Part shown: positions 14,306 to 56,542 of the stretch, in pieces
Numbering within the stretch: position 1 is the first letter of the stretch
Layout of the letters: every line of letters starts with the position of its first letter
Origin: an uncultured Pseudomonadales bacterium
GTDB taxonomy: Bacteria; Patescibacteriota; Microgenomatia; UBA1400; CAYXSR01
DNA: 64,000 bases
Direction: 5' to 3'
NCBI GenBank assembly: GCA_964430265.1
Contig: CAYSEI010000003.1
Span: 65,070-129,069, forward strand
Position numbers and translations under genes: made by a program
Notes under the pieces: model-generated
What the model saw: only the letters and a program-made list of their open reading frames with translations
Database searches by the model: none
What the model was told of the DNA's origin: nothing

Positions 14306-14334
14306 TTGCCTCTTTTCTTTTTTAAAGTCAAAGG

Positions 14335-16140: not shown

Positions 16141-16141
16141 A

Positions 16142-16480: not shown

Positions 16481-16485
16481 AAAAG

Positions 16486-17607: not shown

Positions 17608-17611
17608 AAGA

Positions 17612-19579: not shown

Positions 19580-20276
19580 TTTGTTTTTCCTGTTGTTTTT
19601 TAATTGCTGCTTGAACAAGAGAGCGAGTATAGTTTTCAGAAGATGTAAATTTTTGACCTTCACTTTCCGGATTGTATATTTGGTAAAAAAGACGGATCAG
19701 CTCTTTTGTTTCCAGTTGCCGGCTGTTTAGTCCGATTCGGGTTAATTGTTTTATCATATGATCTCTTTTAGGATATAGATTGTTTTTGGCTTTTTCCAGT
19801 ATATAGTCAATTGGATAAGGAAGTTTTTGAGATTTTTTAAATGAAGAACTGATTGAGCTGGCAACTCCCAACTCAGTGGTTGAAAAAGGAATAATAACAT
19901 AAAAGTTTTTATCCAATATTTCTCTGTTTTTAACAGTTTCTTCAATAAACGAGTAATATTTTTTTAACCATTCTTTAATTTGTCTTGGCTTTTTTTTATT
20001 TATTTCATTGTCTAAAAGTTTAAGATAAGAAGAAATATCTTTTTGCTGAGAACGAATAAAAACTTGAATTGTAAAAGAAAGAGAATTTAAAAGCTCTCCG
20101 TATGCATAAATTGTTGCGTCCTGCTCTTTTTCTGATAAAAGACCAAAGTTAACAGCTGTTGTTTGTAAAATAATACAGCAGGAACCGTCTTTAAAAATAA
20201 CGATGTTGTCTTTTACATCTTCAATATCGAGGTGTTCTTGTGTGCTTGCTCTGATTGGAGTTTGGGCAGGGTTCAT
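19572..20276 (-). CDS. Hypothetical protein resembling the CagE/TrbE/VirB4 N-terminal domain (T4SS-associated)
   Basis: …IVIFKDGSCCIILQTTAVNFGLLSEKEQDATIYAYGELLNSLSFTIQVFIRSQ… resembles the N-terminal domain of VirB4/TraC; directly upstream of the ATPase gene with a 5-nt gap. Confidence 0.4.
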   Translation of the reverse strand: MNPAQTPIRASTQEHLDIEDVKDNIVIFKDGSCCIILQTTAVNFGLLSEKEQDATIYAYGELLNSLSFTIQVFIRSQQKDISSYLKLLDNEINKKKPRQIKEWLKKYYSFIEETVKNREILDKNFYVIIPFSTTELGVASSISSSFKKSQKLPYPIDYILEKAKNNLYPKRDHMIKQLTRIGLNSRQLETKELIRLFYQIYNPESEGQKFTSSENYTRSLVQAAIKKQQEKQNG

Positions 20277-20294
20277 TTTTTTATTTATATAATA

Positions 20295-21431
20295 TTAATA
20301 TAGCTCAATGTGCTCTTTTTTTCCTTCTTCTTTTATTTGTTTTTTCTTTTGAGCTTGTATACGTAATGGATCAATAATTTCTCCTTCTAACTCAAGAGTT
20401 ATTATATCAAATTCAAAGAGTTCATGTTCAGGAATTATTTTATAAGAACCGTTTTTTAATGGAGTGGCTGTATAAAATTGTCCCAGCTTGTTTGTTTTAA
20501 GCGCTCGGACAATATTGCCTTTTGAATCTTGAATTTCAATTAAAGCATTAGGGAGAATTTTGGATTCAGTGTCTAAAACCATGCCGACCAAAAGATTTGA
20601 AATGTCTGGTTTCTGTGGAATAGGCAGTTCCTTTTCAAATTCCGCTTCGGAAAACTTTTGGTCTTTTCTGCGGTTTTCTACTTTAAGAGGAGGTGTTAAA
20701 GGCTCTGCGGGTTTAACTTGTGGTTTCTTTTGAAATTTGGATTCGTGGTTGTTGATTAAAGGTTCTTCCCTGTCCTTTTTTATTTTAAGCGGTTTTTCCT
20801 TTTGTATTTCTACGGGCTTTTTTTGTACAAGAGATGTATAAACTGTTTGGTCTTTTTTCAGGTTTCTTTTGCTACTGAGCTTTCTTACTTTTACTTCAGG
20901 CTTTTGTTGTTTTTCTGTTTCTGGCTGAGTTTGTGGTCTTTTTTGTATTGAAACTTTTTGCGGTTGAATATTTTGTAAAAGATTGTTTATTCTGGCTAAT
21001 TGTTGGTCCTCTTCTCCGGCCCCGGCTTGTGCATCAGGAAGTGTTTTTAAAAAGCTTTGCAGATCTTTTGTTTGTTTTTTGTTTTTATCTTCTTTTATAT
21101 TTATTTTTTTATGATAGGTGAATTCAAAAGCGGGGGGAGTAATTGATTTCTTTTTCCAAATAAATTGTGTAGGATGGGTAATTGATTTGATAAAGTTTTT
21201 AAACCAAACGTCTAAAGGTCTTTCCTCTACCGGAAAAAAAGCCATGGCTATACCTGTAAACGCAGAGAGCACTATTAAAGGAATACGGAAAAATGAATGG
21301 ATGGGAAGAATATAAAAAAAGACGGCCACGGCAATGCCGCCGGCAAGTTCAAAAAACTGTTTTAAAGTCATGTCTCCAACCAAGCGGAACTCGTAAGAAG
21401 CAATATCTTGTGGAATTGGGTGTTGTTTCAT
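20295..21431 (-). CDS. Two-TM membrane protein, TcpE/PrgI(VirB3)-like N-terminus with K/Q-rich linker and C-terminal domain
   Basis: N-terminal …YEFRLVGDMTLKQFFELAGGIAVAVFFYILP… plus a second TM helix, a topology common to VirB3/TcpE proteins that precede VirB4; remainder lysine-rich with no homology recognised. Confidence 0.35.
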   Translation of the reverse strand: MKQHPIPQDIASYEFRLVGDMTLKQFFELAGGIAVAVFFYILPIHSFFRIPLIVLSAFTGIAMAFFPVEERPLDVWFKNFIKSITHPTQFIWKKKSITPPAFEFTYHKKINIKEDKNKKQTKDLQSFLKTLPDAQAGAGEEDQQLARINNLLQNIQPQKVSIQKRPQTQPETEKQQKPEVKVRKLSSKRNLKKDQTVYTSLVQKKPVEIQKEKPLKIKKDREEPLINNHESKFQKKPQVKPAEPLTPPLKVENRRKDQKFSEAEFEKELPIPQKPDISNLLVGMVLDTESKILPNALIEIQDSKGNIVRALKTNKLGQFYTATPLKNGSYKIIPEHELFEFDIITLELEGEIIDPLRIQAQKKKQIKEEGKKEHIELY

Positions 21432-42094: not shown

Positions 42095-43579
42095 TTAGGT
42101 TCTTCTGTTTCTTTCTGAAAGCTGTGCTTTAGTAAGCGCATCGCTTCTTCTCTGACGTCTCCATTGCTGATAAGATTGACGTACTTGCATAGGTCTTGCC
42201 ATACTGCCGGCAATTTGTTGGGCAACCATTCCACCCATTTTATCTTCAACACCAAAAGCTCCCTTAACAATTTCAGGTACTTTGGTAATCATTAAGATCA
42301 TGCCAAAGCCGATTACGGACAGAATTGGATTACCAAGAGAATTTCCTGATGTATTGAAGAATCCGAATAATGGAGGGACCCAAACGTTTTCATCGTTTTC
42401 AGTTGCACTATAATAACCCACATCGCAAGAAACACACCAAGGGTTTGAATCATCATTACATGCAGAATCACAATCTCCTGGTGTTACGTGTGATCTATTT
42501 CCCATCATTAAAGCGGCAACAAGAAACATTATCCCTACGGCGGGAAAAACTAAGATATTTGCAAGCAGGCTTTTAATCCAGTTTTTAAAACTGTCATTTC
42601 CGGGAATAGCGTTAAATAGAATTACTAAAGGTGAAAAAACAATTTGAACAACAACACTGACATATGTTTTTGCCAGTGAAAAGAAAATTTTGGCAATGTT
42701 AAAGAAAAGAACAAAAAACATAAAGGTAAACCCCAAATTTCCAACAAGTTTTCCTGAGATCCACCCAAGTCCTCGTCGGACTAAATTTTCATCACCAAAA
42801 AGACTATTGACTAAGTTATCCAATGCATGAGCAGGAGCTCTGGCAAAAAGCTTTTTACCAGAGAAGGTTATTTCAAACAGGTTTTTTCTTAATAAGTTTT
42901 GAATTACTTCTTCGGAACTAGTAATTAAACCGGAAAATTGTAAAAGACCGACAAAACCGTAAATAATAATATAAATAAGGTCAATTAGTAATCCGGCAAT
43001 TGCATAGGAAAAAGTAATTAAAAGCAATGTAACTACAATCCTTGGGAGGGCGGATTGCACAGTAATAACTGTTTGCGGGTCAATCTTGCTTCTAAACATT
43101 ATCATGAAGCCAACTATTATAAATATAAAAACAAAAAATACATAAGAGAGATTTCTAAAAGCCTTCCAGATTTCCAAAAAAGGAGCCAGTGCACGCCATC
43201 CTGTTGAATTTTCTTGTGCAAAAGCAGGGGAAGCAATCCCAATCCTTTGTCCAATATCTGCAAAATATTCAATACTGCTTGCGGGTGGACTGTCAATCAT
43301 GTAAGCAACTTGATTGGTTAACATTGGAATTAAACCGCTGGTACTTCCGTCTTGTTCGGAAGTTTCATACATGACTGTATTCAAGGATCCTGAGGTTGCT
43401 GCTACTGTTTGTGCCACCCAGCATTCTTGGTTCATCTGACCTTCTTCACATTTCTCCAGTGCATTTTTAAAGCTTTGTTGAGCTTCAGATTGGGCAATAG
43501 CAGGATTAGGGGATAAGAAAAGGAAAGCGGTAAAAACAAACAGTAAACTAACAAATATAATAGTTTTTAAATTTTTCAT
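42095..43579 (-). CDS. Polytopic membrane protein with signal peptide and large N-terminal extracytoplasmic domain (VirB6/TrbL-like candidate)
   Basis: Signal peptide ending AIAQ, ~150-aa periplasmic domain, at least 5 TM helices, Cys-rich loop; immediately downstream of the pilin array. Confidence 0.45.
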   Translation of the reverse strand: MKNLKTIIFVSLLFVFTAFLFLSPNPAIAQSEAQQSFKNALEKCEEGQMNQECWVAQTVAATSGSLNTVMYETSEQDGSTSGLIPMLTNQVAYMIDSPPASSIEYFADIGQRIGIASPAFAQENSTGWRALAPFLEIWKAFRNLSYVFFVFIFIIVGFMIMFRSKIDPQTVITVQSALPRIVVTLLLITFSYAIAGLLIDLIYIIIYGFVGLLQFSGLITSSEEVIQNLLRKNLFEITFSGKKLFARAPAHALDNLVNSLFGDENLVRRGLGWISGKLVGNLGFTFMFFVLFFNIAKIFFSLAKTYVSVVVQIVFSPLVILFNAIPGNDSFKNWIKSLLANILVFPAVGIMFLVAALMMGNRSHVTPGDCDSACNDDSNPWCVSCDVGYYSATENDENVWVPPLFGFFNTSGNSLGNPILSVIGFGMILMITKVPEIVKGAFGVEDKMGGMVAQQIAGSMARPMQVRQSYQQWRRQRRSDALTKAQLSERNRRT

Positions 43580-43623: not shown

Positions 43624-43953
43624 TTAGTTAACAATTTTAAAAACAGTTACTTCAACACCGGTAAAGGATTCAATTATTCGGAATATAAACCAGACTCCTA
43701 TTATCAATATTAATCCAATTAATGCAGTAGTAATTGTTTTTTTTGCTTGCTGGGTTTGTTCTGGGTTTGCTCCTGCGGTAAGGAATTGGAAACCTCCAAT
43801 TAAAAGCATAATAAAAAGTACAATTGCACCGGCAGTGGTGATCAAAGATAAAATATTGCCAATCAATATTTCCAGATCGCCAAAGTCTGCCGGTTCATTT
43901 GCAGGAGAATCCCATTCTTCTAATTGAGCATAAACAGTTGATACTAGGCTCAT
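43624..43953 (-). CDS. VirB2/TrbC-like pilin paralog
   Basis: Leader ending VYAQ; helix 1, GGFQFLTAGANPEQ…AKKTITTALIGLILI, helix 2: a two-helix pilin pattern shared with the neighbours. Confidence 0.5.
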   Translation of the reverse strand: MSLVSTVYAQLEEWDSPANEPADFGDLEILIGNILSLITTAGAIVLFIMLLIGGFQFLTAGANPEQTQQAKKTITTALIGLILIIGVWFIFRIIESFTGVEVTVFKIVN

Positions 43954-43962
43954 AAATATGTT

Positions 43963-44343
43963 TTATCTAATAGATGGGATGTCAATTTCGCTAAAGCTGA
44001 CGCCAAAGAATTGACCCACCAATTGCATAACTGCCCAAGCTGCGGCAACAATTGCCAAGCCAACTAAAGCAGCAGTTATTTTGTTGCGTGCCTCTTCATA
44101 TTGTGCTTTGTCTCCACCTGAGGTTATCCATTGAATTCCGCCCCAGACTAGGTATACAAAGGTTAAAAGTCCGGCGATTGCCAAAATAACAGTAATGCCA
44201 TTTTGAATTAATTGTCCTAATCTGCCTTCGGGAACGCCTTGTTCTGGCGGTTCCACTACAATGTCTTGTGCATAAGCAACAGATCCAGACAATAAAGTTG
44301 TTAAAACTGAACTGCCTAATTTTGCTAATTTTTTCATATTCAC
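43963..44343 (-). CDS. VirB2/TrbC-like pilin paralog
   Basis: Signal peptide ending AYAQ; WGGIQWITSGGDKAQYEEARNKITAALVGLAIVAAAW core. Confidence 0.5.
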   Translation of the reverse strand: MNMKKLAKLGSSVLTTLLSGSVAYAQDIVVEPPEQGVPEGRLGQLIQNGITVILAIAGLLTFVYLVWGGIQWITSGGDKAQYEEARNKITAALVGLAIVAAAWAVMQLVGQFFGVSFSEIDIPSIR

Positions 44344-44399
44344 CTCCTTTAATCTTATTTTTTAATTATAACTATCCCTTCTCTGTTGTCAAGGGAAAA

Positions 44400-44756
44400 T
44401 TAGATACCGAGATTAAATACTGCGTTTGTTCCGGTTGTCCCAATACCCAAGAATTTAATTGCCAGCCGCCAAATTACCCAAGCCACTGCTAGTAATGCAA
44501 GTCCAATCAAAGAATGAAGCATTTTGTTGCGTGCATCTTCTACCCGTGACTTGTCGCCTTCAGCAGTAATATATTCTAAAGCACCCCATACAAAATATCC
44601 CAGTGTAAGAAGGGCTCCAATAGCAATTGCAAAGGTAACTATATTAGAAACAAGAGTTCCAATATTTTTGATTTCAAACAATGCATCTGCTTCATCCCGG
44701 ATATTAGTGTTTACGGGTTGTGCGTATACTGGAGGAATAATGTTTAATAAATTCAT
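44400..44756 (-). CDS. VirB2/TrbC-like pilin paralog
   Basis: VYAQ leader; WGALEYITAEGDKSRVEDARNKMLHSLIGLALLAVAW core. Confidence 0.5.
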   Translation of the reverse strand: MNLLNIIPPVYAQPVNTNIRDEADALFEIKNIGTLVSNIVTFAIAIGALLTLGYFVWGALEYITAEGDKSRVEDARNKMLHSLIGLALLAVAWVIWRLAIKFLGIGTTGTNAVFNLGI

Positions 44757-44757
44757 T

Positions 44758-45093
44758 TTATTGTGGTGTTGGCCAAACTATATTTAATATATCAAAACCA
44801 AAGATTGCTTCCGCCAGGATCATAATAGCAAAGGATCCGGCTAAAAGAGCCATACCAATGAAAGCATGAGTGATTTTATTTTTAGCTGCTTCCAGTTTAT
44901 CTGGTTTGCCTTCACTCATCAGCCAGTCAACTGCACCCCAGACAAAGTATAGAAGAAGAGCCACACCGCCTACGACAACAACAGTCCTCCATAAACGGAC
45001 AAATAATGGTGCAAGTGGGTTACCGGCAACGCCAGTATATCCGCCTTCTGAATTTGGCAAAACTGGATTAGTAATTTGTGCTATTTTTTTCAT
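44758..45093 (-). CDS. VirB2/TrbC-like pilin paralog
   Basis: WGAVDWLMSEGKPDKLEAAKNKITHAFIGMALLAGSF core. Confidence 0.5.
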   Translation of the reverse strand: MKKIAQITNPVLPNSEGGYTGVAGNPLAPLFVRLWRTVVVVGGVALLLYFVWGAVDWLMSEGKPDKLEAAKNKITHAFIGMALLAGSFAIMILAEAIFGFDILNIVWPTPQ

Positions 45094-45473
45094 CAGCTCC
45101 AGAAATTTCTTATATATTCTCCCGGGTTTAATATATTTACTCCCAGGATTGATCCTACTATAAATATTACTGCATAAGCTGCCACAACTACAATAAGACC
45201 AATAGCAGCGTCTGTCAGCATTTTTTTGGATTTTTCCACTTGGTCCTGCTTACCTCCAGCAGTTATCCAATTCAGCCCGCCAATAAAAAAGTAGATAATA
45301 AAAAGAATTCCGGCAACAATTGTAAATGTGCCAATTACATTGGAAAGAATTTTTTCAAGTGTAGGAATTCCGTAATCTCCGGTATTGGGATTATAAGCTC
45401 CGGTAATTCCTTCTATTGCACCAAGATTCTCTTGGGCATAGACTTCTGTTATTAAGTTATTTAAAATTTTCAT
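45093..45473 (-). CDS. VirB2/TrbC-like pilin paralog
   Basis: VYAQ leader; IGGLNWITAGGKQDQVEKSKKMLTDAAIGLIVVVAAY core. Confidence 0.5.
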   Translation of the reverse strand: MKILNNLITEVYAQENLGAIEGITGAYNPNTGDYGIPTLEKILSNVIGTFTIVAGILFIIYFFIGGLNWITAGGKQDQVEKSKKMLTDAAIGLIVVVAAYAVIFIVGSILGVNILNPGEYIRNFWS

Positions 45474-45856
45474 ATTCCTGGTCCATAAATTTTAGGTTGT
45501 AATATTGCTGTTGCATCTTTAAAGATCAGCCATCCAAGTAAAGCAGCGATAGTAAATGAAGCAACAATGATTACCAGACCAAGAAGTGAATTAAATATTT
45601 TTTGCCAGGCGTTTTGAATTTTCTCAGGATCACCACTGGCAGTAATAAAGTCAAATCCGGCCAGAAGAAGATTAAAAAAAGTCCAAATTCCGGCAACAAT
45701 AGTTAAGGTTTTAACAATATTGCTGAGAAATCCTACCAGTCCGCCGTTGGGATTATTGTAGTCTCCATATCCGTCTTGAAGAGGGTTGCTGATATTGCCA
45801 AAAACGTCTTGCGCATAGGCAGTGGAAACAATTTTGTTATATATTTTATTAATCAT
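45470..45856 (-). CDS. VirB2/TrbC-like pilin paralog
   Basis: AYAQ leader; LAGFDFITASGDPEKIQNAWQKIFNSLLGLVIIVASF core; start trimmed to the Met giving an ATGA overlap with the upstream gene. Confidence 0.5.
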   Translation of the reverse strand: MINKIYNKIVSTAYAQDVFGNISNPLQDGYGDYNNPNGGLVGFLSNIVKTLTIVAGIWTFFNLLLAGFDFITASGDPEKIQNAWQKIFNSLLGLVIIVASFTIAALLGWLIFKDATAILQPKIYGPGI

Positions 45857-46173
45857 ATTCCAGTACCTTCCAAAATTGGCACTCCTGTAATGTATTGTAC
45901 TATTTGAATAATCCAAAAAGCAGCAAATACCAAAATAAATCCAATTATTGCTGCTGTGATCGCTTTACTGCCTTGTGCTTTTTGCTGCGGATCATTTCCA
46001 CTCGTTATTATAGCAAAACCGCCTCCTATGAGCAAAAAGAAAAGTAATAGGCCTGCTACCATTAGGACGTTGGGTAAAATAGCGGTAATAAATTCGCCAA
46101 TGCTGCCGTAGCCGGTTTTATTGGCTATTCCTTCGTTTCCAAGTTTAAATTTGTCTCCAATATCTACTGGCAT
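45853..46173 (-). CDS. VirB2/TrbC-like pilin paralog (first gene of the array)
   Basis: IGGGFAIITSGNDPQQKAQGSKAITAAIIGFILVFAAF core; a TGcTATAAT-like -10 element lies ~8 nt upstream of the ATG on the minus strand (about 46180-46190). Confidence 0.5.
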   Translation of the reverse strand: MPVDIGDKFKLGNEGIANKTGYGSIGEFITAILPNVLMVAGLLLFFLLIGGGFAIITSGNDPQQKAQGSKAITAAIIGFILVFAAFWIIQIVQYITGVPILEGTGI

Positions 46174-46253: not shown

Positions 46254-47237
46254 ATGCTGAAAAAAGAAATTTTAAAGTTTAAAAACCAGTTTGATCCGCT
46301 GTTAAAGAAAAAACTAAAAAAGGAAGAAAGTCTTTTTTTTAAAGAATATTCACTGCTTATTAGAGAGATTGAAAGAGTAACCTTTTCTGGAGGAAAACGG
46401 ATCAGGCCATTGTTGGTATGTTGGGGGTATCAAGCAGTTGGTGGAGGAAATTTTGCAGATGTAGTTGATGCATGCTTTAGTATTGAACTTTTTCATACAT
46501 TTGCTTTGATACACGATGATATTATGGATAAATCAGAAAAACGTAGAGGTAAAATAACTACTTGGAAAAAAATAGGAGTTGATAAAGCAATTTTGACAGG
46601 AGACTTGTGTTTAAGTTTAGCGGATGAATACTTTCCTCAAAAAGCAAATAAAAAATATTTTAATTTATTAAAAAAAGAAACCTGTCTGGGTCAGTATTTG
46701 GATATTCAGAACAATAAAGAATTTAGTGAAAAACAAGTAAGAAAAATTTTAGATTTTAAAACTGCAAAATATACAATTGTCCGTCCTTTGCAGATTGGTG
46801 CTAGTTTTAAAACGCAAGATGATAAAATTATGAAGCTTTTTTTGAAATATGGTAAAAGAATGGGAACAGCATTTCAAATAAAAGATGATTTATTGGGTGT
46901 TTTTGGAGAAGATAATAAAACAGGCAAGCCAGTTGGAGAAGATATTAGTGAAGGGAAAAAAACCTTGCTGATTGCAAAGTTAAAAAAAATAGGAAAAAGT
47001 ATGAAAAAAAAGGAGAAAGAAAAATTTTCAAATTTGTTTAACTGTAAAAAAAGATTAAACAAGAGTGAACAGAAATTCATTATTAACCTTTTTAAAAAAT
47101 ATAATATAGACAAAGAAGTAATTGCAGAAATGCAAAAAGAAGCAGAACAGGCAAGAAAGATAATCAACAATTCGGATATAAAAGAAAAAGAAAAACTTTT
47201 ACAAATGACTCAATATCTTATTAATAGAGAACATTAA
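46254..47237 (+). CDS. Short-chain trans-polyprenyl diphosphate synthase (GGPP/FPP synthase type)
   Basis: First DDxxD motif LIHDDIMD and second FQIKDDLLG; 327 aa. Confidence 0.85.
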   Translation: MLKKEILKFKNQFDPLLKKKLKKEESLFFKEYSLLIREIERVTFSGGKRIRPLLVCWGYQAVGGGNFADVVDACFSIELFHTFALIHDDIMDKSEKRRGKITTWKKIGVDKAILTGDLCLSLADEYFPQKANKKYFNLLKKETCLGQYLDIQNNKEFSEKQVRKILDFKTAKYTIVRPLQIGASFKTQDDKIMKLFLKYGKRMGTAFQIKDDLLGVFGEDNKTGKPVGEDISEGKKTLLIAKLKKIGKSMKKKEKEKFSNLFNCKKRLNKSEQKFIINLFKKYNIDKEVIAEMQKEAEQARKIINNSDIKEKEKLLQMTQYLINREH

Positions 47238-47780
47238 ATGAACGAAAAAAAACTGATTAGCAAAATACTTAAAGGAAACAAGCGAGCAAAAAAGAAATTT
47301 TATCAGTATTATAAGCCGCGGCTGGTTAAATATATCCAAATAAAAACGCCAAATAAACAAGATGCAGAAGAGATTTTACAAGATACATTTATGTCTGCTT
47401 TTTTATCTTTGCCTAATTTTAAACAGGACAGTTCTTTGTATACATGGCTTTGTTCAATAGCCCGGCATGAAATAGCGGATTTTTACCGCAAAAAAAAGAT
47501 TAAGACTATTGTTTTTTCCCGCTTGCCTTTTCTAGAAAATTTATTTTCTGAAGCTTTGGGACCGGAATTAAAATACAAGGAAAAGAAGATAAAGGAAAAG
47601 ATTAGTGATTCTTTTGGCAGTTTAAAAAAAGAATACGTGCAAATTCTCAAACTTAAATATATTCATAACAAATCGGTGAAAGAGATTGCTAAAATACTGG
47701 GTAAGAGTTTTAAAGCAACAGAATCACTTCTTTACCGGGCAAGAAAAGCATTTCAAAGGGAATACTTATTGCTTGATTAA
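47238..47780 (+). CDS. ECF-type RNA polymerase sigma-70 family factor
   Basis: Region 2 (…DTFMSAFLSLPNF…YTWLCSIARHEIADFYRKK) and region 4 HTH (…VKEIAKILGKSFKATESLLYRARKAF…). Confidence 0.65.
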   Translation: MNEKKLISKILKGNKRAKKKFYQYYKPRLVKYIQIKTPNKQDAEEILQDTFMSAFLSLPNFKQDSSLYTWLCSIARHEIADFYRKKKIKTIVFSRLPFLENLFSEALGPELKYKEKKIKEKISDSFGSLKKEYVQILKLKYIHNKSVKEIAKILGKSFKATESLLYRARKAFQREYLLLD

Positions 47781-47824
47781 AAGCAAATTCGAATGATTTT
47801 TCTTTTTTTTACGACAGATATAGT

Positions 47825-48166
47825 GTGACTAACAAAGTAAAAAAAGTTTGTAAATACACGATATTGTTTTCTATCAAAGAATCTTATCTTTTTGTGCGCA
47901 ATTTACTGGGTTTATGGACACATCCGTATAAAACACTGCGTTTAATTAAAAAAGAAAAAGATTATAGTCAGGCAATTCTTGTATTAGGATTCCCTTTTTA
48001 CATTATTTTCTTTGGCACCTTTTTTATATTCTTTTCTCGGATACTGATTGGTGCTCCCTCTGATTGGGGAAGATTAGCGCAAGCAAGTTTTTATTCATTG
48101 TTTTTTATTTCTTTTATGGTTTTTATATACATTACTTATTGGGGAATGAAGGTTAGAAAGGATTAA
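47825..48166 (+). CDS. Small membrane protein (possible anti-sigma factor partner)
   Basis: 113 aa with 2-3 TM helices immediately downstream of the ECF sigma gene; function from context only. Confidence 0.3.
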   Translation: MTNKVKKVCKYTILFSIKESYLFVRNLLGLWTHPYKTLRLIKKEKDYSQAILVLGFPFYIIFFGTFFIFFSRILIGAPSDWGRLAQASFYSLFFISFMVFIYITYWGMKVRKD

Positions 48167-48167
48167 A

Positions 48168-48464
48168 ATGGGAAAATATGAACGATATCGTAGTGAACGA
48201 TTATTTAGGGCAAGTTTTTCCCGGGATGGATTTGAAAATGGTTTAGGATTAGCTCATAGAACAGGATTACAGAAAGAGATGATTACCATTCCCAAAAGTG
48301 TTTGGGGGATACAAAGGTCTTCGCCTACTGAAAGTTTAGGCGAGGAGAAAATAATTGAAATGAGAGAAGATGTTGAAGCAATGTTAAAGCTAAGAAGCAA
48401 TGGCCATAATTTGGATGGACTTTATACTATTAAAGATTTTGAAGAAGTAGGAATATTGGAATGA
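48168..48464 (+). CDS. Hypothetical protein (98 aa)
   Basis: ORF translationally coupled with idi (overlap ATGA at 48461); no family recognised. Confidence 0.4.
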   Translation: MGKYERYRSERLFRASFSRDGFENGLGLAHRTGLQKEMITIPKSVWGIQRSSPTESLGEEKIIEMREDVEAMLKLRSNGHNLDGLYTIKDFEEVGILE

Positions 48465-48970
48465 AAGTTGTTGTAGTTAATAAAAATGACAAAGAAATAA
48501 GTTTTTTGGGCAAAATAAAAGCACACAAAAAAGGAAAACTACACCGCGCATTTTCTATTTTTGTGTTTAATGATCAAGGTGAATTATTAATTCAAAAACG
48601 TTCCAAACACAAATTGTTGTGGCCGGAATTTTGGTCAAATACTGTATGTTCACATCCTTTACCAAAAGAAGAAACTATTGATGCCGCACAAAGAAGGCTA
48701 AAGGAAGAATTTGGTTTTTCAACAGAATTAGGGCTGGAGTATAGATTTCAGTATTATGCTGAATATGGTGATGTGGGAATAGAACATGAGCTTTGCCATG
48801 TTCTTATCGGGAATTACAATGGTAAAGTAAAGCCGGACAAAAAAGAAATTGCTGATTATAAATGGATAAATATTAACAAATTAAAACAACAGATTAAAAG
48901 AAGTCCGGATAAGTTTACTCCTTGGTTTAAAAAGGAGTTTAAAGAATTAGTAAAAAGGGGAATAATTTAA
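48461..48970 (+). CDS. idi: Isopentenyl-diphosphate delta-isomerase, type 1 (Nudix)
   Basis: HRAFSIFVFNDQGELLIQKRSKHKLLWPEFWSNTVCSHP and Nudix-box-like ETIDAAQRRLKEEFG. Confidence 0.85.
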   Translation: MKVVVVNKNDKEISFLGKIKAHKKGKLHRAFSIFVFNDQGELLIQKRSKHKLLWPEFWSNTVCSHPLPKEETIDAAQRRLKEEFGFSTELGLEYRFQYYAEYGDVGIEHELCHVLIGNYNGKVKPDKKEIADYKWININKLKQQIKRSPDKFTPWFKKEFKELVKRGII

Positions 48971-49929
48971 TGGTTAAAGTTTCTGCGCCTGGGAAAATCC
49001 ATTTATCCGGTGAACACAGTGTCGTTTACAAAGAGCCAGCTCTTTTATCAACTCTTAATAAGAGACTGTATATAGAGATACAAGAAAAGGAAAATCAAGG
49101 ATTTATAATTGAAGATTTAGAACAAAAGCTAGAAGAAAAAATTAATTTTCCAGAATTAAAGGAATTTTCAAAAAAAACAGTAGAAGTTTGGAAGAATAAT
49201 GATAGATTAGGATTAGTGAAGGCTAGTATTGTGGAGTTTTTTAAATATTTAAACCAAGAGCCGAAAAAGGGGTTTCAGGTAAAAATTAAATCACAAATTC
49301 CTATTGGAGTAGGATTGGGTTCTTCAGCTGCATTGTCAGTCTCTTTAGCAGGAGCATTTTTAAAATATTATAAAAAATGGTCATTGAGTGAAATAAACAA
49401 GGTAGCCTATTTAATTGAAAAAAGGCAGCATAAAAGTCCTAGTGGTGGTGACAATACTGTATCGACGTATGGTGGATATATTTACTATGTTAAAAATGAA
49501 GAGATACAAAAATTTAATGGAAAGACATTAAAAGATTTTTATATTATAAACTCAGGAAGACCATTGGAATCAACAGGAGAAATGGTGGATTTGGTAAGTA
49601 ACAATTTAAATAAAAAAACTATAAAAAAAATGGGGGAAACTACAGTTGCTTTAAAAAATGCAATTGAGAAAAAAGAATATCAAGAAATAAAAAAGCTAAT
49701 TAAGAGAAATGAAAGATTGTTAGAAGAAATTGGAGTTGTGGGAGAAAGAGCGAAAAGAATAATTAGAGAGATTGAGAAAAATAGAGGTTCTGCTAAAATA
49801 TGCGGAGCTGGAGCGGTAAAGCAAGGATCAGGTATAATATTAGCCTATAAGCCGGATATTGATAGTTTAAATGTGGAATTTGAAAAACTAAAATTAGGGG
49901 TGGAAGGAGTCAGAATTGAAAAAAGTTAA
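48970..49929 (+). CDS. GHMP kinase, mevalonate kinase
   Basis: N-terminal APGKIHLSGEHSVVY; ATP-binding PIGVGLGSSAALSVS; 319 aa. Confidence 0.65.
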   Translation: MVKVSAPGKIHLSGEHSVVYKEPALLSTLNKRLYIEIQEKENQGFIIEDLEQKLEEKINFPELKEFSKKTVEVWKNNDRLGLVKASIVEFFKYLNQEPKKGFQVKIKSQIPIGVGLGSSAALSVSLAGAFLKYYKKWSLSEINKVAYLIEKRQHKSPSGGDNTVSTYGGYIYYVKNEEIQKFNGKTLKDFYIINSGRPLESTGEMVDLVSNNLNKKTIKKMGETTVALKNAIEKKEYQEIKKLIKRNERLLEEIGVVGERAKRIIREIEKNRGSAKICGAGAVKQGSGIILAYKPDIDSLNVEFEKLKLGVEGVRIEKS

Positions 49930-50890
49930 ATGCTCTGCACCAGGTAAATTAATGCTTTTTGGTGAACATGCAGTTGTACACGGAAAGCCTTGCATTGTAA
50001 CTGCGGTTGACCAAAGGATTCATGTAGAGGCAGAAGAGAATGGAAAAGATGAATTGGTTGTAAATGCTCCCCAGTTAGGGATTAAAAACTATCATAAAAC
50101 AGTAAAAGAGCTTTGTAACCAGGAAATGCCTAAACAGGTCAGTTTTATTGAAGCTTTGGTAAAGCGGTTTTATGAAAAATATGGACTTGAAAAAGGTTTA
50201 AATATTACTACCAATTCAGAGTTTTCCCATACATACGGTTTTGGGTCTTCATCAGGAGTAACAATTGCTACTACAAAAGCTTTGTCACTTTTATATGATA
50301 TTCAGCTGTCGGAAAAAGAGATCTTTGACCTTGGGTATCAAGCGGTTCTTGATATCCAAAAAGTCGGCAGCGGATTTGACTTGGCTGCAGCTTTATGGGG
50401 GAAGATTATTTATTACAAAAAAGGTGCAGAAATAGTAGAAAGACTAAGTGTGCATAATCTCCCCCTTGTTGTTTGTTATTCAGGAATTAAAGCAGATACA
50501 CCTACGCTTGTAGAGCAAGTTAATGAATTTAAAAGAAAAAAACCTAAAAAAGTTGCAAACATTTTTAAACAAATGCAGGAAATTGTAGATCTAGCAAAAA
50601 AACTTATACCCCAGAATAAATGGGAGGAGTTAGGTAAACTAATGAATCAAAACCAGGAATTATTGGAAGAATTAGGTGTTTCAACCTACAGATTGGAAAA
50701 CTTGATTAGTGCGGCAAGAGATGCGGATGCATTGGGTGCTAAATTGTCTGGAGCTGGAGGGGGAGATTGTATTATTGCCTTGGTTGAGGAAAATAAAAAG
50801 ATAAAAGTTAAAAAGGAACTGGAAAATGCAGGCGGACAAATAATGGATGTTAAATTAAATTCCAAGGGGGTTAAATGTCAGGAAATATGA
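49916..50890 (+). CDS. GHMP kinase, probable phosphomevalonate kinase
   Basis: APGKLMLFGEHAVVHG; GFGSSSGVTIA; second GHMP kinase, placed between mvk and mvaD. Confidence 0.5.
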   Translation: MKKVKCSAPGKLMLFGEHAVVHGKPCIVTAVDQRIHVEAEENGKDELVVNAPQLGIKNYHKTVKELCNQEMPKQVSFIEALVKRFYEKYGLEKGLNITTNSEFSHTYGFGSSSGVTIATTKALSLLYDIQLSEKEIFDLGYQAVLDIQKVGSGFDLAAALWGKIIYYKKGAEIVERLSVHNLPLVVCYSGIKADTPTLVEQVNEFKRKKPKKVANIFKQMQEIVDLAKKLIPQNKWEELGKLMNQNQELLEELGVSTYRLENLISAARDADALGAKLSGAGGGDCIIALVEENKKIKVKKELENAGGQIMDVKLNSKGVKCQEI

Positions 50891-51870
50891 AAGCCAGCTG
50901 CAAGTCTCCGGCAAACATTGCTTTTATAAAATATTGGGGAAAGACTGATCCTGAAACACGTGTGCCGCAGAACAATTCCATTTCAATGTGTTTGTCTAAT
51001 CTTTACAGTATATGTACTGTAAAATTTGATGAAAAATATGCTGAAGACGAAGTCCAATTTTTAAATGAAAAAGTAGTTAAGGATAGGGAAATTAAAAGAA
51101 TAATTGAAACTTTGGATCGGGTGAGGAATAAAGCAGGGATAAGTTATAAAGCAAAAGTAGTAACTAAAAACAACTTTCCCAAAGCAACTGGGATTGCTTC
51201 TTCAGCTTCCGGACTGTCTTCTTTAACTGTGGCTGCGGCAAAAGCAGCTGGATTAGATTTGAATAAAAAAGAGATGTCGAAGCTGGCAAGACTGGCTTCA
51301 GGTACTGCTTGTAGGTCAATACCGGATGGTTTTGTGGAATGGGAAAAAGGAACGTGTAAAAAAGACTCATATGCAAAACAAATATATCCCACCGATTACT
51401 GGGATATAGTGGATATTGTAGCTATTGTGACTAAGAAAATGAAAAAAATTTCCTCAACCAATGGCCACAGTATGGCGGATACCAGCCCTTTTCAAGAAAC
51501 AAGAATTAAAAATATGCCAGAAAAAATTAAAAGATTTAAAAAAACACTTGAAAAAAAGGATTTTTATGAATTTGGCAATATTTTGGAAAAAGAAAGTTTA
51601 AATATGCATGCAATCTGTTTAACCAGTAAGCCGCCGATCCTTTATTGGGAAGCAACAACCATGACAATAATGCGTAAAGTTCGGGAGTGGCGTTCAAAGG
51701 GTTTGCCTGTGTATTTTACAATTGATGCTGGTCCAAGTGTGCACATAATTTGTAAAGGTAAAAGTGCGGAAATTGTGCAGGAAAAGCTGAAAAAAATAAA
51801 AGGGATTGACAGGATTTCTCTTAACAGGTCTGCAAAAGGGGCAAAAATAATAAAAAAACATTTGTTTTAA
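50875..51870 (+). CDS. mvaD: Diphosphomevalonate decarboxylase
   Basis: SPANIAFIKYWGK N-terminal signature and GHMP-like ATP loop (…TGIASSASGLSSL…). Confidence 0.85.
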   Translation: MSGNMKASCKSPANIAFIKYWGKTDPETRVPQNNSISMCLSNLYSICTVKFDEKYAEDEVQFLNEKVVKDREIKRIIETLDRVRNKAGISYKAKVVTKNNFPKATGIASSASGLSSLTVAAAKAAGLDLNKKEMSKLARLASGTACRSIPDGFVEWEKGTCKKDSYAKQIYPTDYWDIVDIVAIVTKKMKKISSTNGHSMADTSPFQETRIKNMPEKIKRFKKTLEKKDFYEFGNILEKESLNMHAICLTSKPPILYWEATTMTIMRKVREWRSKGLPVYFTIDAGPSVHIICKGKSAEIVQEKLKKIKGIDRISLNRSAKGAKIIKKHLF

Positions 51871-51885
51871 GGAGTTGCGGTAATA

Positions 51886-52584
51886 ATGCAGAAATTATGC
51901 GGTAATAAACTACCTAAACACGTTGCTTTTATAGTTGATGGCAACCGTCGCTGGGCAAAAAAGAATAATCTTTCAAGTATGGCTGGACATCGTCATGCAA
52001 TGTACAATGTTTTGGATCCAATTGCTTTTCATTGCATAAAGTTAGGTATTCCATATTTAACTTACTGGGTTTTTTCCACGGAAAATTGGAAAAGAGGCAA
52101 AAGGTTTTACAATGCGCTTTTTAAGCTTTTGGAAGAAGGGTTAAACAAGGGTTTTGAAAAATATGACAAGGCAGGCATCCGTTTAAATACTATTGGCAAC
52201 TTAAGTGAAATCCCTTCCCATTTGGCAAAGAAAATAAAGGAGTGGGAGGAATTAAGTAAAAATAACAAAAATTTAACAGTTACTATTGCTTTAAATTACG
52301 GTGGTAGAGAGGAAATAGTTCGAGCAGTAAACAAATACAACGAGCAGGAAAAAAGAAAATTAAATGAAGAAAAATTCCCTCAGTATTTAGATACCGCAGA
52401 CTTGCCGGATCCGGATTTAATTATTCGTACTGGAGGAGAAAAAAGACTTTCCGGCTTTTTATTATGGCAGTGCCAGTACTCGGAGCTTTATTTTACTGAC
52501 ACATTAATGCCGGATTTCAGTATAGAAAAATTTGAAAAAGCTTTAAAAGATTTTTGTCAAAGGCAGAGGCGCTTTGGAAAATAA
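51886..52584 (+). CDS. uppS: Undecaprenyl-diphosphate synthase (cis-prenyltransferase)
   Basis: HVAFIVDGNRRWAKK, …YWVFSTENWKR…, and C-terminal RFG. Confidence 0.85.
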   Translation: MQKLCGNKLPKHVAFIVDGNRRWAKKNNLSSMAGHRHAMYNVLDPIAFHCIKLGIPYLTYWVFSTENWKRGKRFYNALFKLLEEGLNKGFEKYDKAGIRLNTIGNLSEIPSHLAKKIKEWEELSKNNKNLTVTIALNYGGREEIVRAVNKYNEQEKRKLNEEKFPQYLDTADLPDPDLIIRTGGEKRLSGFLLWQCQYSELYFTDTLMPDFSIEKFEKALKDFCQRQRRFGK

Positions 52585-52902
52585 TTAGATACCTAGCATG
52601 GCTTTAACAATTTGGTAGATCCAAAAAGAAAGAAAAACAACTCCAAAACCAATAGCTCCATTTGTCAAGCTTTTTTTAGCATTAGCCATTGTTTCTTCAT
52701 TACCAGCAGAAGTCATTAATTGAAAGCCACTGCCTAAAATGATAAAAAGAAGAATTAAGCCAGCGATTACAAAAACATAGTCTAAAGCAGAAGTAATAAC
52801 TGTTCCTAAAGTTGCATCTGGACCACTAAATTTAAAACCGCTTGGATCATTTACGTGTCCTGAGCCGGTTAGTCCTGGCAAAGACAGCCATAATAACATC
52901 AT
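52585..52902 (-). CDS. VirB2/TrbC-like pilin paralog
   Basis: LGSGFQLMTSAGNEETMANAKKSLTNGAIGFGVVFLSF core matching the 43.6-46.2 kb array. Confidence 0.45.
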   Translation of the reverse strand: MMLLWLSLPGLTGSGHVNDPSGFKFSGPDATLGTVITSALDYVFVIAGLILLFIILGSGFQLMTSAGNEETMANAKKSLTNGAIGFGVVFLSFWIYQIVKAMLGI

Positions 52903-52903
52903 T

Positions 52904-53755
52904 TTATAACCCCCATCCTGGTATTTTTAATATTCTGTACCCGATTAATTCTAGTATAAAAACAGAGAAGATAATAAACAAAAGGCCGGCACCAGCAGAA
53001 ACTAAAATGTTTTTACCTTCTTGTAATTTTTCCGGATCCCCGGAGCTAGTCATTACTTGGAAAGCTCCCCAAATCATAATTAAAAAAGCTATACCGCCGC
53101 CAATTGAGATTGCTTTGTTTAAAAACCAGCGGATAAAAATTGTGGATTGGGTGGGAACACATCCAAGAACAGTTTCAATACCTTCAAAATAGTCATTAGG
53201 ATTACTTCCTACAGGAATTCTGCAATCATTAGGTTCATAAAAAGTTTTTGTGTTGTCATTGGTATTAGAGGGATCTTGACACCTAAATACTCCTGCTTGA
53301 ATTTCTGTACATACTTGAGATCCAGGGCATGTACATACACCTCCGCCGCAGTTGTCATTAGGGCCACATTCGTCAGTTGCGCTTTCCTCACATGTTCCAA
53401 TGAAATATCCGGAAGCTGTGCATGTATTAGGACAGTTTCCTGGAAAATGAGAACCATCACATTTATCATCGTAATATTCACAAAAACTACCTTGTTGAGT
53501 ACAGATATATTCGTTGGTGGAAAAATCAACAAGTTGGCATTCGCGAGGATCTATTGTGCACTCAGTTATATCTAATCCAGAACAGTCACCAGGAATAAAT
53601 CCGCTTTCGCAGTTATTGCTACCGGATAACTCACATTGTCCGGGTGGTTGCCATACACATTGATATGTCCCTTGTGAATAGACACCCCTTGTAAAAAATA
53701 AAAAAAAGTTACAGAACAAAAAAAGGTTTAATATTAATTTTAATTTTTTCTTCAT
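52904..53755 (-). CDS. Cysteine-rich extracellular domain fused to a C-terminal VirB2/TrbC-like pilin module
   Basis: Signal peptide; ~170-aa domain with ~30 Cys (…CVWQPPGQCELSGSNNCESGF…CTCPGSQVCTE…); C-terminal …WGAFQVMTSSGDPEKLQEGKNILVSAGAGLLFIIFSVF… pilin core. Confidence 0.5.
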   Translation of the reverse strand: MKKKLKLILNLFLFCNFFLFFTRGVYSQGTYQCVWQPPGQCELSGSNNCESGFIPGDCSGLDITECTIDPRECQLVDFSTNEYICTQQGSFCEYYDDKCDGSHFPGNCPNTCTASGYFIGTCEESATDECGPNDNCGGGVCTCPGSQVCTEIQAGVFRCQDPSNTNDNTKTFYEPNDCRIPVGSNPNDYFEGIETVLGCVPTQSTIFIRWFLNKAISIGGGIAFLIMIWGAFQVMTSSGDPEKLQEGKNILVSAGAGLLFIIFSVFILELIGYRILKIPGWGL

Positions 53756-53801
53756 TAGTTCAATATTTTATCAAAAAAAATTTAAAATAGTAAATGATAT
53801 A

Positions 53802-55517
53802 ATGGTGAGGATGAAAAAACTGCTCAAATTTTCTATTTCTATTTTTGTGGTTTTAAGCGTATTTTCTGCTGCTGTTTTACCGGCCAAAGGATATGATGAA
53901 ATTGAAAAGCTGCAAAAAGAGATTGAAGAACTGGAAAAAGCAAAAAAAATGAGTGAAGAGGCAACTGAGCCTTTGGAAGCAGAGCTTGTGAGATTACAGC
54001 AAAAACTACAAAATATCCAAGCGGGAATTGCACAAGCGGAAAATGATTTGAATAAGTTGGAGCAGAGTATAAATACACGGGAAAAAGAGTTTGAGGATCA
54101 GTATGTTATTTTAGCTGAAAGAGCTTCACGATATTATAAGTCTTTACGTATGCCGTCACGGATGATGTTTTTATTGTCTTCGGAAACAGCTTCTTCTTTA
54201 ACCAAGAATATTGCTTACAAAAACGCAGTCACCCAGGAGGATAAAAAAATTATTTCACAAATCAGCAAAGATCTTTTAAAGCTGGAAGAAGATAAGCTTA
54301 AGCTTGAGCAGCAAACAAAGCAACTGGCTTCTTTAAAAGCAAAAACTGATAATCAAGCAGCATTTTTTCAAAAAGAAATTGCTGGTGCAAAAGATTATCA
54401 AGAAGATTTAAGTCAAAAAATAGAGGAGCTTACCGAAAAACAAAAGGAAATTTTGGCAGCCAGATCAGGAACTTTTACTACGAGTGTAGGTAATGTGCCT
54501 GACAGCAGTATTCCTTGTTCTGGTCCTCCAGGAACTCCATCATATTGTGATCCGGGCGGTGGAACCTGGTTTGCTGCTTTTTCTTTTGGCGCTTGGACTC
54601 ACAGAAAAGGAATGAGTCAGTACGGAGCCAAAGCAAGGGCGGAATCTGGCCAGAATTACAAAGATATATTAAAAGCTTATTATGGAAAAGAGCCGGTAAG
54701 CAAAGATACAGGTGGAAATATTTCCGTACAGGGATTTGGGGACTTGAATTTTGAAGATTACTATTTAATGGGAATTGCAGAAATGCCTTCAAGTTGGCCG
54801 GAAGATGCTTTAAAAGCACAAGCAATAGCAGCCAGAACATATGCTTACCGCTATAAAAAGGAAGGCAGTGCAATTTGTACCACCCAAAGTTGCCAGGTGT
54901 TTAATAATGGCAAAGCTGCCAGCCCGCCGGAAAAATGGAAAAAGGCAGTCCAGGATACAAAAGGACAAATAATAGAGGATGTAACCACTTTTTATTCTTC
55001 TACTTCGGGAGGATATTTAACCACACATACTGGCTGGGATACCAAGTGTGGGAGCAAAGATTGCTGGCCGGATGATGCCTGGGAAGTTGAAGCAAATTCT
55101 CCCTGGTTTTATAGTGCCTGGTACACTGATACGTATAATCCAAATTCTGCTAAATGCGGCAGAGGTAATCCTTGGCTGAACTCAGAAGAAATGGCAGATA
55201 TTTTAAATGCTTGGAAAGTTTTGCAAAAAGAGAATGATGAAAGAATCTTGCCGGTGACAATTAATGAATGTCCGATTGGCGGTAACACTGGGAATCCGTA
55301 TTCAATGGAAGAGTTGCGCAGTAAAGGAGGCGGTTATTCCAGTATTTCTTCTGTAAGTGTAAGTTACAGTAATGGTGGAGAAACAGGTTCAATCTCATTT
55401 CAGACAGATAAAGGATCAGTAACAGTTTCTGGTTCAGAATTTAAAAAGGCGTTTAATTTACGTGCACCCGGATATATTGCAATCCGCAGTCCCTTGTTTA
55501 ATATTGAGAAAAAATGA
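53802..55517 (+). CDS. SpoIID/LytB-domain protein with N-terminal coiled coil (peptidoglycan remodelling)
   Basis: Signal/anchor, ~200-aa coiled coil; SpoIID/LytB signature …WTHRKGMSQYGAKARAESGQNYKDILKAYYGK…. Confidence 0.5.
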   Translation: MVRMKKLLKFSISIFVVLSVFSAAVLPAKGYDEIEKLQKEIEELEKAKKMSEEATEPLEAELVRLQQKLQNIQAGIAQAENDLNKLEQSINTREKEFEDQYVILAERASRYYKSLRMPSRMMFLLSSETASSLTKNIAYKNAVTQEDKKIISQISKDLLKLEEDKLKLEQQTKQLASLKAKTDNQAAFFQKEIAGAKDYQEDLSQKIEELTEKQKEILAARSGTFTTSVGNVPDSSIPCSGPPGTPSYCDPGGGTWFAAFSFGAWTHRKGMSQYGAKARAESGQNYKDILKAYYGKEPVSKDTGGNISVQGFGDLNFEDYYLMGIAEMPSSWPEDALKAQAIAARTYAYRYKKEGSAICTTQSCQVFNNGKAASPPEKWKKAVQDTKGQIIEDVTTFYSSTSGGYLTTHTGWDTKCGSKDCWPDDAWEVEANSPWFYSAWYTDTYNPNSAKCGRGNPWLNSEEMADILNAWKVLQKENDERILPVTINECPIGGNTGNPYSMEELRSKGGGYSSISSVSVSYSNGGETGSISFQTDKGSVTVSGSEFKKAFNLRAPGYIAIRSPLFNIEKK

Positions 55518-56312: not shown

Positions 56313-56542
56313 TGGAAGATTTTTTATATGAAGCAATCGGAATCTCAATTTGGTCTGTGGCAAAGTTTGCTGTAGTTTTTGCGTTGTTTGTTTATGTTCT
56401 TTTTGCAGTGATAGTGGTACGTCAAGTTAAACTGATGGGAAAGACATTAAACGGTAATTTAAACCTGCCGTTGAAGGTTATTTCTTGGATCCATTTATTA
56501 TTGGCACTTTTGGTGGTGTTTTTGGCTTTTGTAATTTTATGA
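56312..56542 (+). CDS. Small two-TM membrane protein (76 aa)
   Basis: ATGA-coupled to flanking genes; hydrophobic. Confidence 0.4.
   Translation: MEDFLYEAIGISIWSVAKFAVVFALFVYVLFAVIVVRQVKLMGKTLNGNLNLPLKVISWIHLLLALLVVFLAFVIL

Follow-up and report, generated by a model that had tools for sequence, protein, structure and literature searches.

A pilin of the type IV secretion family with a hypervariable cysteine-rich head, a candidate for host recognition in Microgenomates

We analysed a 64,000-nucleotide stretch of genomic DNA, here called the window, and within it a gene (52904-53755, minus strand) for a 283 aa protein that joins a cysteine-rich head to a pilin-type helical hairpin. The window comes from a member of the Microgenomates group of the Patescibacteria, or candidate phyla radiation (CPR), and its nearest named protein relatives are found in metagenome-assembled genomes (MAGs) of Beckwithbacteria, Shapirobacteria and Woesebacteria. 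We propose, with moderate confidence, that this protein, termed the head-pilin below, is the position-1 subunit of a conserved array of eight VirB2-like (PF18895) pilin families belonging to an origin-adjacent, monoderm-type type IV secretion system (T4SS), where it would serve as a low-copy adaptor with an exchangeable recognition or adhesion head. The proposal rests on the bimodular architecture of the protein, the family of its module, its position-1 orthology, its tight coupling to the position-2 gene, the T4SS neighbourhood and the pattern of variable heads. From these observations we infer incorporation into a pilus, a position at the tip and adhesion, and the head emerges as a candidate for the host-recognising element.

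The head-pilin gene was defined from the open reading frame (ORF) list and its translation. It is followed on the same strand by a gene for a 105 aa pilin, the ATG of which lies 1 nt past the head-pilin stop codon. NCBI holds the exact sequences of both proteins, and of the 571 aa protein encoded divergently upstream, as called genes. An earlier interpretation made from the letters of the window (the sequence-only reading) had described a signal peptide, a cysteine-rich extracellular domain and a pilin core with an adjacent 105 aa paralogue, and this outline holds. Hydropathy and sequence both identify a Sec-type signal peptide at the amino-terminus, with a lysine-rich start, hydrophobic residues 6-24 and a VYS/Q cleavage site. 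Residues 28-203 are hydrophilic and contain 20 cysteines, and the hydropathy profile then shows two strongly hydrophobic segments (~206-232 and ~249-275) separated by the polar loop TSSGDPEKLQEGK. A signal peptide in front of a helical hairpin orientated N-out/loop-in/C-out would place the amino-terminal domain outside the cell, as had been proposed. The details of that domain required revision. It had been given as ~170 aa with ~30 cysteines in CxC/CxxC-like spacing; its cysteine-rich character stands, and the region divides into a head proper of ~150 aa (28-177) and a 26 aa conserved neck. We counted 21 cysteines, one in the signal peptide and 20 in the mature protein. One CxC is present (C141-T-C143), there is no CxxC, and the typical spacing is 4-12 residues.

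The carboxy-terminal module is a pilin module by several measures. Residues 213-270 of the head-pilin match PF18895 (T4SS_pilin) with 32.5 bits against a cutoff of 26.6, the 105 aa pilin matches with 43.6 bits, and all seven ORFs at 43624-46173 match with 29-45 bits. Matches to the same family were found in 112 of the 121 members of the head-pilin family. The head-pilin carboxy-terminus also aligns with its eight paralogues at 21-32% identity, in agreement with the two-helix core that the sequence-only reading had seen in both. A second family, NF045849 (Mbov_0395-family pilin-like conjugal transfer protein), is matched by the 105 aa pilin at 39.7 bits, where the cutoff is 40, and by the head-pilin with E=6e-5. 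Using AlphaFold (AF2) with a 121-sequence alignment, we obtained a confident model for residues 175-275, with a predicted local distance difference test (pLDDT) score of 85-95. The model contains three neck strands (177-181, 189-195 and 198-201, pLDDT 85-92) and the two helices of the hairpin (204-236 and 241-275, pLDDT >90). Together with the hydropathy profile, this gives the plan of the conjugative VirB2/TrbC/TraA pilins, namely a leader peptide and two hydrophobic helices with a short polar loop. Across the 121 sequences C178, T195, G198 and C199 are nearly invariant. The position-1 family has the motifs C...TA[LI]GC[IV]P in the neck and GGIAFLLM...TSSGDPEK...ILKIPGF in the module, which the window protein fits, and mean identity across species is 63.6% for the module compared with 45-62% for the other array positions.

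On its profile scores the head-pilin is a member of PF18895. Membership in the group of solved VirB2/TrbC/TraA pilins is not demonstrable from sequence. One array paralogue weakly matches TrbC/VirB2 (PF04956) with E=0.0036 and 17.9 bits, below the cutoff of 27.9; the head-pilin has no match to PF04956, and none to the type IV pilin families of Pfam. Profile searches of the PDB with 9 and with 91 pilins found no pilin.

Searching the ORFs of the fetched loci with a hidden Markov model built from the window pilins, we found that 21 of the 46 loci longer than 12 kb have exactly eight pilin genes in the same orientation, beginning with the head-pilin. The array is contiguous in many loci, and elsewhere a 1-3-kb gap containing UPPS lies between genes 2 and 3. 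When 30 arrays were compared across genomes, the best match fell at the same position in 100, 93, 93, 93, 89, 80, 92 and 91% of cases for positions 1 to 8, respectively. The array therefore consists of eight distinct, ordered orthologous families. This position-specific arrangement is found in loci L010, L023, L031, L035-L037, L040, L047, L048, L058, L059, L068-L070, L075, L076, L083, L084 and L086. The window has nine array genes, among which the 283 aa protein is position 1 (30/30 best matches) and the 105 aa protein position 2 (27/30); of 76 species loci, 73 likewise have a same-strand small pilin downstream of the head-pilin. The remaining genes, read from 46173 down to 43624, are positions 3, 4, (5), 6, 7, 7 and 8, position 5 being ambiguous and position 7 apparently duplicated (44400-44756 and 43963-44343). 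What had been taken for a small satellite locus is accordingly the detached 5' end, positions 1 and 2, of the conserved eight-position array. Several of the array pilins at 43624-46173 have very short leaders ending in VYAQ or AYAQ (MSLVSTVYAQ, MNLLNIIPPVYAQ, MKILNNLITEVYAQ, ...STAYAQ), the hydrophobic regions of which seem shorter than a usual Sec signal peptide would need. A motif of the VYAQ type and a signal peptide are both absent from the position-2 pilin.

The T4SS genes lie close to the likely origin of replication. The window carries rnpA, yidC, dnaA (14755-16140) and dnaN (16486-17607), with the minimum of the cumulative GC skew near 14-16 kb. The T4SS machine genes that follow were identified from matches to PF19044 (E=3e-32), PF03135 and PF12666 (E=5e-10).

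We then compared the locus between genomes, using six metagenome contigs and 80 species-representative genomes; the genome scan had reported 256 genomes with a relative. In the close relative L003 the flanking SpoIID fragment and UPPS are 93% and 89% identical in protein sequence to those of the window. At the DNA level the two loci are 91-94% identical in SpoIID and the intergenic region (94% over the 46 bp between SpoIID and the head-pilin), 77-82% in the module and 93-97% in UPPS. Over the head-coding region (~53700-53160) identity is ~50%, with 30-50% gaps. The exposed amino-terminus of the position-2 pilin (52811-52934) is also hypervariable in this comparison, at 49-58% DNA identity compared with 72-83% for the rest of the gene. 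A second relative, L001, has a SpoIID 76% identical to that of the window, and its head-pilin is 72% identical from the neck onward (aa 171-283) and 80.5% identical over the last 88 aa; in L001 and L003 alike these last 88 aa, comprising hairpin and tail, are 80-81% identical to the window. The two heads compared (144 and 112 aa) do not align, showing 25% identity over the 60 residues that can be matched up.

The same pattern extends across the family. Head-pilins range from 104 to 665 aa between species, and BLAST clustering of the 56 species heads with 40 aa or more gives 47 groups, of which 39 are singletons; the 114 database homologues give 69 head clusters. Headless orthologues also exist, consisting of signal peptide, a C-x7-10-C neck (C...TAIGCIP) and module only. 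One protein, P0123, carries a head of the same type as the window protein (P0001) and sits at the same locus in a distant genome, where SpoIID is 48% and the module 62% identical, yet the closer genomes (SpoIID 93% in L003 and 76% in L001) carry heads unrelated to that of the window. Heads are therefore replaced faster than the flanking genes diverge. In these comparisons the core-genome locus is conserved apart from its hypervariable head, and a conserved scaffold with a variable head is consistent with a molecule in contact with another cell or a phage. A diversity-generating retroelement or a silent cassette was considered as the source of the variation and rejected, as the head DNA is neither duplicated within the window nor matched there by a template-like repeat; the RVT_3 match at 12044-12469 is an RNase H. 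A metagenome scan with SpoIID for relatives at strain level returned 36 loci, the best of them 57-67% identical. In four loci (L055 5359-8107, L012 1-3176, L015 4822-7075 and L067 3079-6492) the array apparently opens with a tandem of two or three long genes that resemble the head-pilin gene, which if so would give several different heads per genome.

The composition of the window head sets it apart from its surroundings. Cysteine accounts for 20 of the 176 mature residues 28-203 (11.4%), compared with a mean of 0.51% over the remaining 47 genes of the window (P ~7e-21); none of the eight free pilins in the window has a cysteine. An exhaustive phmmer search of 1.84e9 representative proteins returned P0123 as the only true relative of the head (E=1e-10), the remaining matches being short matches to repeat proteins. 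A profile built from the P0001 and P0123 heads found nothing when searched, and tblastn of the window head against all 124 fetched loci found the P0123 loci only. The two proteins keep 18 of the 19 cysteines of aa 28-178 (C178, which we place with the neck, being the 19th) at 38% overall identity, so that the cysteine pattern noted in the sequence-only reading is conserved in the one relative that shares this type of head. Of 73 species orthologues, 67 have an even number of cysteines in the mature protein (p=4e-14). The head count is odd in 100 of 115 database homologues, and the invariant cysteine of the neck then gives an even total. Such systematic parity implies complete disulfide pairing outside the cell, and taken together with the conservation between P0001 and P0123 it disfavours a disordered linker. 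A CPR-enriched family of MdbA/VKOR-type oxidoreductases has been described (bioRxiv 10.1101/335083).

Pfam gave no match to the window head at E up to 0.1. On the question of an EGF- or knottin-like fold, AlphaFold gave the head no assignable fold, with pLDDT <50 for residues 35-139 from the 121- and 2-sequence alignments alike, and the only recurrent predicted elements were short beta-hairpins, for example at 148-160. The low scores are attributable to the shallow alignment and do not demonstrate disorder. A possible internal repeat, YxC-x6-7-C-x6-7-C-xxG-x-x-PG-x-C, was dropped after self-alignment gave z=1.4 and the motif was found in 11 proteins against 3.4 +/- 1.8 in shuffled sequences. 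Residues 112-138 (GYFIGTCEESATDECGPNDNC, 53341-53421) give short local matches to a repeated motif, GTYYYGACVDSVxGESDxNDNCSS, in the large multi-repeat proteins P0121, P0122, P0126 and P0129. The resemblance spans residues ~112-149 (~30 aa) and is too weak to use; the E-values are inflated by repetition, and homology is not established. A foreign origin of the head was also considered from base composition; GC is 0.40 in the head and 0.36 in the module, a difference that cysteine and glycine codons can explain and that is not diagnostic.

Since the module and neck are conserved, and heads of 0 to ~500 aa are swapped between related genomes, we propose a fixed adaptor with an exchangeable head. 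The head-pilin would be exported through Sec and its signal peptide cut after VYS27. The ~150 aa head would fold outside the cell with ~10 disulfides, as cysteine conservation and parity suggest, and the neck and hairpin would sit in the membrane N-out/loop-in/C-out. The protein would be made together with the translationally coupled position-2 pilin, and a VirB4-type machine may then extract the module from the membrane for co-assembly with the other seven pilin families. The module would thus be the fixed adaptor to the filament or machine, and the head, present in low copy, a replaceable module for recognition or adhesion, its likeliest place being the distal end. A vacancy for such a function, which VirB5 or PrgB-type adhesins fill in other T4SSs, exists, in that the adhesin role is without an assigned protein because a published survey of Patescibacteria detected no PrgB-like adhesin and VirB5 is absent from monoderm systems. 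A more ambitious version, which we regard as tentative and somewhat doubtful, sees in the array not a set of interchangeable antigenic variants but the eight ordered subunits of a heteromeric filament or tip complex of the monoderm T4SS, with the leading adaptor carrying an exchangeable host-recognition domain.

Several points weigh against the adaptor proposal. The amino-termini of known VirB2-type pilins face the pilus exterior, and display along the shaft is therefore possible in place of a tip position. In this genome a distance of 6.3 kb separates the pair from the other array genes, and virB4 is ~33 kb away. The window head is without a recognisable adhesin domain, and among the 121 family members a single head matches a Pfam fold domain (CarboxypepD_reg). 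No T4SS pilus is known to have been seen in any CPR bacterium, and reviews go no further than a 'potential to elaborate conjugative pili'.

This last point also favours the chief alternative, which differs from the adaptor proposal in where the head sits and not in what the head does. The head-pilin may be a membrane-anchored surface protein, with the hairpin as anchor, the head projecting from the surface through a thin wall and the array forming a membrane hetero-oligomer, for instance within the T4SS channel or as an attachment plaque. In hydrophobicity the hairpin equals ordinary transmembrane helices, and comparison with solved pilus subunits gave no sequence match and no clear match to a specific fold. 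Eight position-specific families also resemble a complex of fixed stoichiometry more than a homopolymer with variants, although type IV pili and type II secretion systems (T2SS) offer well-known examples of heteromeric filaments that contain several minor subunits. Pfam and NCBIfam, however, both put the module in pilin-like conjugation families, and the weak TrbC/VirB2 match of one paralogue (E=0.0036) points the same way; overall we judge this alternative to be rather unlikely.

The remaining alternatives concern what the head, or the pair, is for. It is possible that the head is a shield or decoy, its variability reflecting escape from phages or host defences and its role being structural, such as capping, wall spacing or protease resistance, with no specific receptor to bind. 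Headless orthologues retain the locus, so the core function would be independent of the head; the hypervariable amino-terminus of the position-2 pilin (49-58% vs 72-83% DNA identity) suggests a more general diversification of the surface; and no adhesin-type domains were detected in the heads. Wholesale replacement by unrelated folded domains of 50-500 aa, with their cysteine frameworks intact, is nevertheless more typical of receptor-binding modules, and the two roles are compatible with each other. We consider a shield decidedly unlikely. Still less probable, to the point of being hard to credit, is that the pair serves cell-wall remodelling or division with the SpoIID operon, independently of the T4SS, as part of a shared envelope biogenesis function. 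SpoIID does lie divergently upstream of the head-pilin in 59 of the 62 species loci with enough sequence, and the block SmpB, ~640 aa protein, DUF5657, bPH protein, SpoIID and, divergently, pilin 1 and pilin 2 is present in every locus examined. Synteny alone does not demonstrate a functional link to SpoIID, because this block includes housekeeping genes; with the unrelated SmpB and UPPS in it, the gene order may be ancestral in streamlined genomes. The pair also physically starts the eight-gene pilin array in many genomes and belongs to the same protein family as the array genes adjoining T4SS components, and a peptidoglycan hydrolase beside pilins would equally suit a VirB1-like role in the T4SS.

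Pilin arrays of Patescibacteria have already been published. The survey of Quinonero-Coronel et al. 2025 (PMC12102498) reports 441 VirB2-like pilin arrays, abundant in Microgenomatia, and monoderm-type T4SSs near dnaA with such arrays and with no PrgB-like adhesins detected. The arrays it describes consist of small divergent pilins with an average identity of 25%, for which antigenic or host-range variation was suggested. In the one case tested, the Saccharibacterium Southlakia, the T4SS with its pilin array is essential for epibiotic growth, according to Wang et al. 2023 (PMC10633639) and PMC12857230. The window shares PF18895, the two-helix module, the tandem array and the monoderm T4SS near dnaA with these published arrays. 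It differs from them in the large amino-terminal head, the disulfide neck and the highly conserved module of the head-pilin, and in an array made of eight position-specific families. The matching passages of the literature make no mention of a pilin with a large ectodomain or of position-specific families.

Outside the Patescibacteria, the closest parallel in design is found in the modular type IV pilins PilB and PilC of Streptococcus sanguinis (Raynaud et al. 2021, PMC8179133), where a tip position is proposed for PilB and many grafted architectures are known. Type IV pilins carry a class III signal peptide, are processed by prepilin peptidase, and have one long amino-terminal helix with the graft at the carboxy-terminus. 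The head-pilin instead has a Sec signal peptide, an amino-terminal graft and a carboxy-terminal T4SS-family hairpin, and both its scaffold and its machine are unrelated. By analogy, it would work like a modular type IV pilin without belonging to that family. In Gram-negative T4SSs the subunits VirB5, TrwJ and CagL occupy the distal end, with target recognition and pilus priming as proposed functions, and VirB5 is absent from monoderm systems (PMC12624023). The role proposed for VirB5 is the same as that proposed for the head-pilin, but VirB5 is not a pilin fusion; it is a helical protein in its own right and assembles as a pentamer on VirB6, and neither the head-pilin nor the neighbours tested match the VirB5/TraC family. 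The Mbov_0395-family pilin-like proteins (NF045849) of the integrative and conjugative elements (ICEs) of Mycoplasma share sequence similarity in the hairpin and likewise belong to a conjugation-type system of a monoderm; they are ~80 aa, without an ectodomain, and the scores obtained here lie just under the curated cutoff. Phage receptor-binding proteins and tail fibres show the same evolutionary pattern, a conserved anchor with a distal domain replaced between close relatives. This likeness is an analogy only, with no sequence or structural relationship, and the head-pilin locus is chromosomal and part of the core genome.

Within the searchable part of the literature, an ectodomain on a T4SS-type pilin, its turnover between related genomes and the position-specific orthology of eight array members all appear to be new. 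The head-pilin shows that grafting a module onto a pilin, as in type IV pili, has a second, independent origin on a pilin scaffold of the T4SS type. In the Microgenomates, a group without cultured representatives, the position-1 pilin offers a concrete, sequence-defined candidate for a host-contact determinant. Head types could be correlated with co-occurring hosts in metagenomes, expressed heads could serve as probes to find those hosts, and the eight families provide a defined subunit list for modelling what may be the first Gram-positive-type T4SS pilus. If the ordered eight-subunit arrangement is true, the array would be a cassette-like targeting system, independent of VirB5, by which the host range of these epibionts is set. 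These results should interest researchers on CPR host interaction and on T4SSs, the function of the head-pilin remaining a proposal. The features of the locus are collected in Table 1.

Table 1. Features of the head-pilin locus and associated genes in the window
Feature	Coordinates	Strand	Basis or remark
T4SS machine genes, adjoining dnaA/dnaN	17612..21431	-	VirB4-like ATPase 17612-19663; PrgI/VirB3-like 20295-21431
494 aa polytopic membrane protein, directly downstream of array	42095..43579	-	Homologues downstream of array in 12 other loci
Array positions 3-8, seven genes	43624..46173	-	All PF18895; positions by cross-genome best matches
Isoprenoid block splitting array positions 2 and 3, 6.3 kb	46254..52584	+	ORFs, Pfam
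Position-2 small pilin, 105 aa	52585..52902	-	PF18895, array position mapping
Conserved carboxy-terminal tail LKIPGWGL and stop codon	52904..52930	-	Family consensus end ILKIPGF(G)
Two-helix pilin-type hairpin, aa 204-275, loop TSSGDPEK	52931..53146	-	PF18895, NF045849, AF2 helices
Conserved neck, aa 178-203, C178...GIETVLGC199VPT	53147..53224	-	Predicted three-stranded sheet, conserved Cys pair
Hypervariable Cys-rich head, aa 28-177, 18 Cys	53225..53674	-	Cys enrichment, one relative only, unalignable in close relatives
Head-pilin signal peptide, aa 1-27, MKKKLKLILNLFLFCNFFLFFTRGVYS followed by Q	53675..53755	-	Hydropathy, sequence; probable cleavage site from -3/-1 rule and recurrent VYAQ/VYSQ in paralogues
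Divergent intergenic region, 46 bp, promoter-like site for pilin pair	53756..53801	.	TTTACT-18-TAAAAT, upstream TG
SpoIID/LytB-domain protein, 571 aa, amino-terminal coiled coil	53802..55517	+	Divergent neighbour, 46 bp from head-pilin gene

Between the head-pilin and its divergent neighbour we observed a putative extended -10 promoter, TTTACT-18-TAAAAT with an upstream TG (53794-53765, minus strand), although the count of such sites is not above shuffled expectation. A scan for promoters and terminators near the pilin pair found no terminator. The neighbour itself had been called SpoIID/LytB-like, and the assignment is secure, with PF08486 at E=1e-19 (71.3 against a cutoff of 23) and TIGR02669 at 97.8 bits (cutoff 83.3). 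Downstream of SpoIID a conserved operon at 55533-58479 (plus strand) encodes a bPH_2-like membrane protein (259 aa), a DUF5657 protein (76 aa) and a ~640 aa protein with a central transmembrane segment, and in other genomes this operon is followed by SmpB. In L021, L051, L063 and L078 the ~640 aa gene lies between SpoIID and the head-pilin.

On the other side of the array, the origin region (13982-19663) directly abuts the VirB4-like gene, and most of the T4SS and array genes between 17.6 and 53.8 kb are on the minus strand, head-on to replication of that replichore. Three very large proteins are encoded between VirB4 and the array, of 2967 aa (28261-37164, minus strand), 1154 aa (38627-42091, plus strand) and 1229 aa (22124-25813, minus strand). 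Their sole domain match is PP2C-like, at aa 2177-2371 of the 2967 aa protein, and no homologues of the three were found in the fetched loci. The 494 aa membrane protein downstream of the array has no match in Pfam or NCBIfam.

The block that separates the pair from the rest of the array encodes a polyprenyl synthase, a sigma-70-like factor, IDI/NUDIX, two GHMP kinases, diphosphomevalonate decarboxylase (MVD) and UPPS. At the same site other genomes have UPPS only, in the 1-3-kb gap, or nothing; UPPS follows the pilin pair in most loci and is absent from many. L001 also has HMG-CoA synthase, HMG-CoA reductase and thiolase, and these CPR genomes appear to encode the mevalonate pathway. Many of the MAG records with this Microgenomates-specific locus (L007, L010, L011, L013 and others) bear the title uncultured Gammaproteobacteria or uncultured Pseudomonadales, and two others name Bathyarchaeia and Clostridia, respectively; such records look like mislabelled or contaminated bins.

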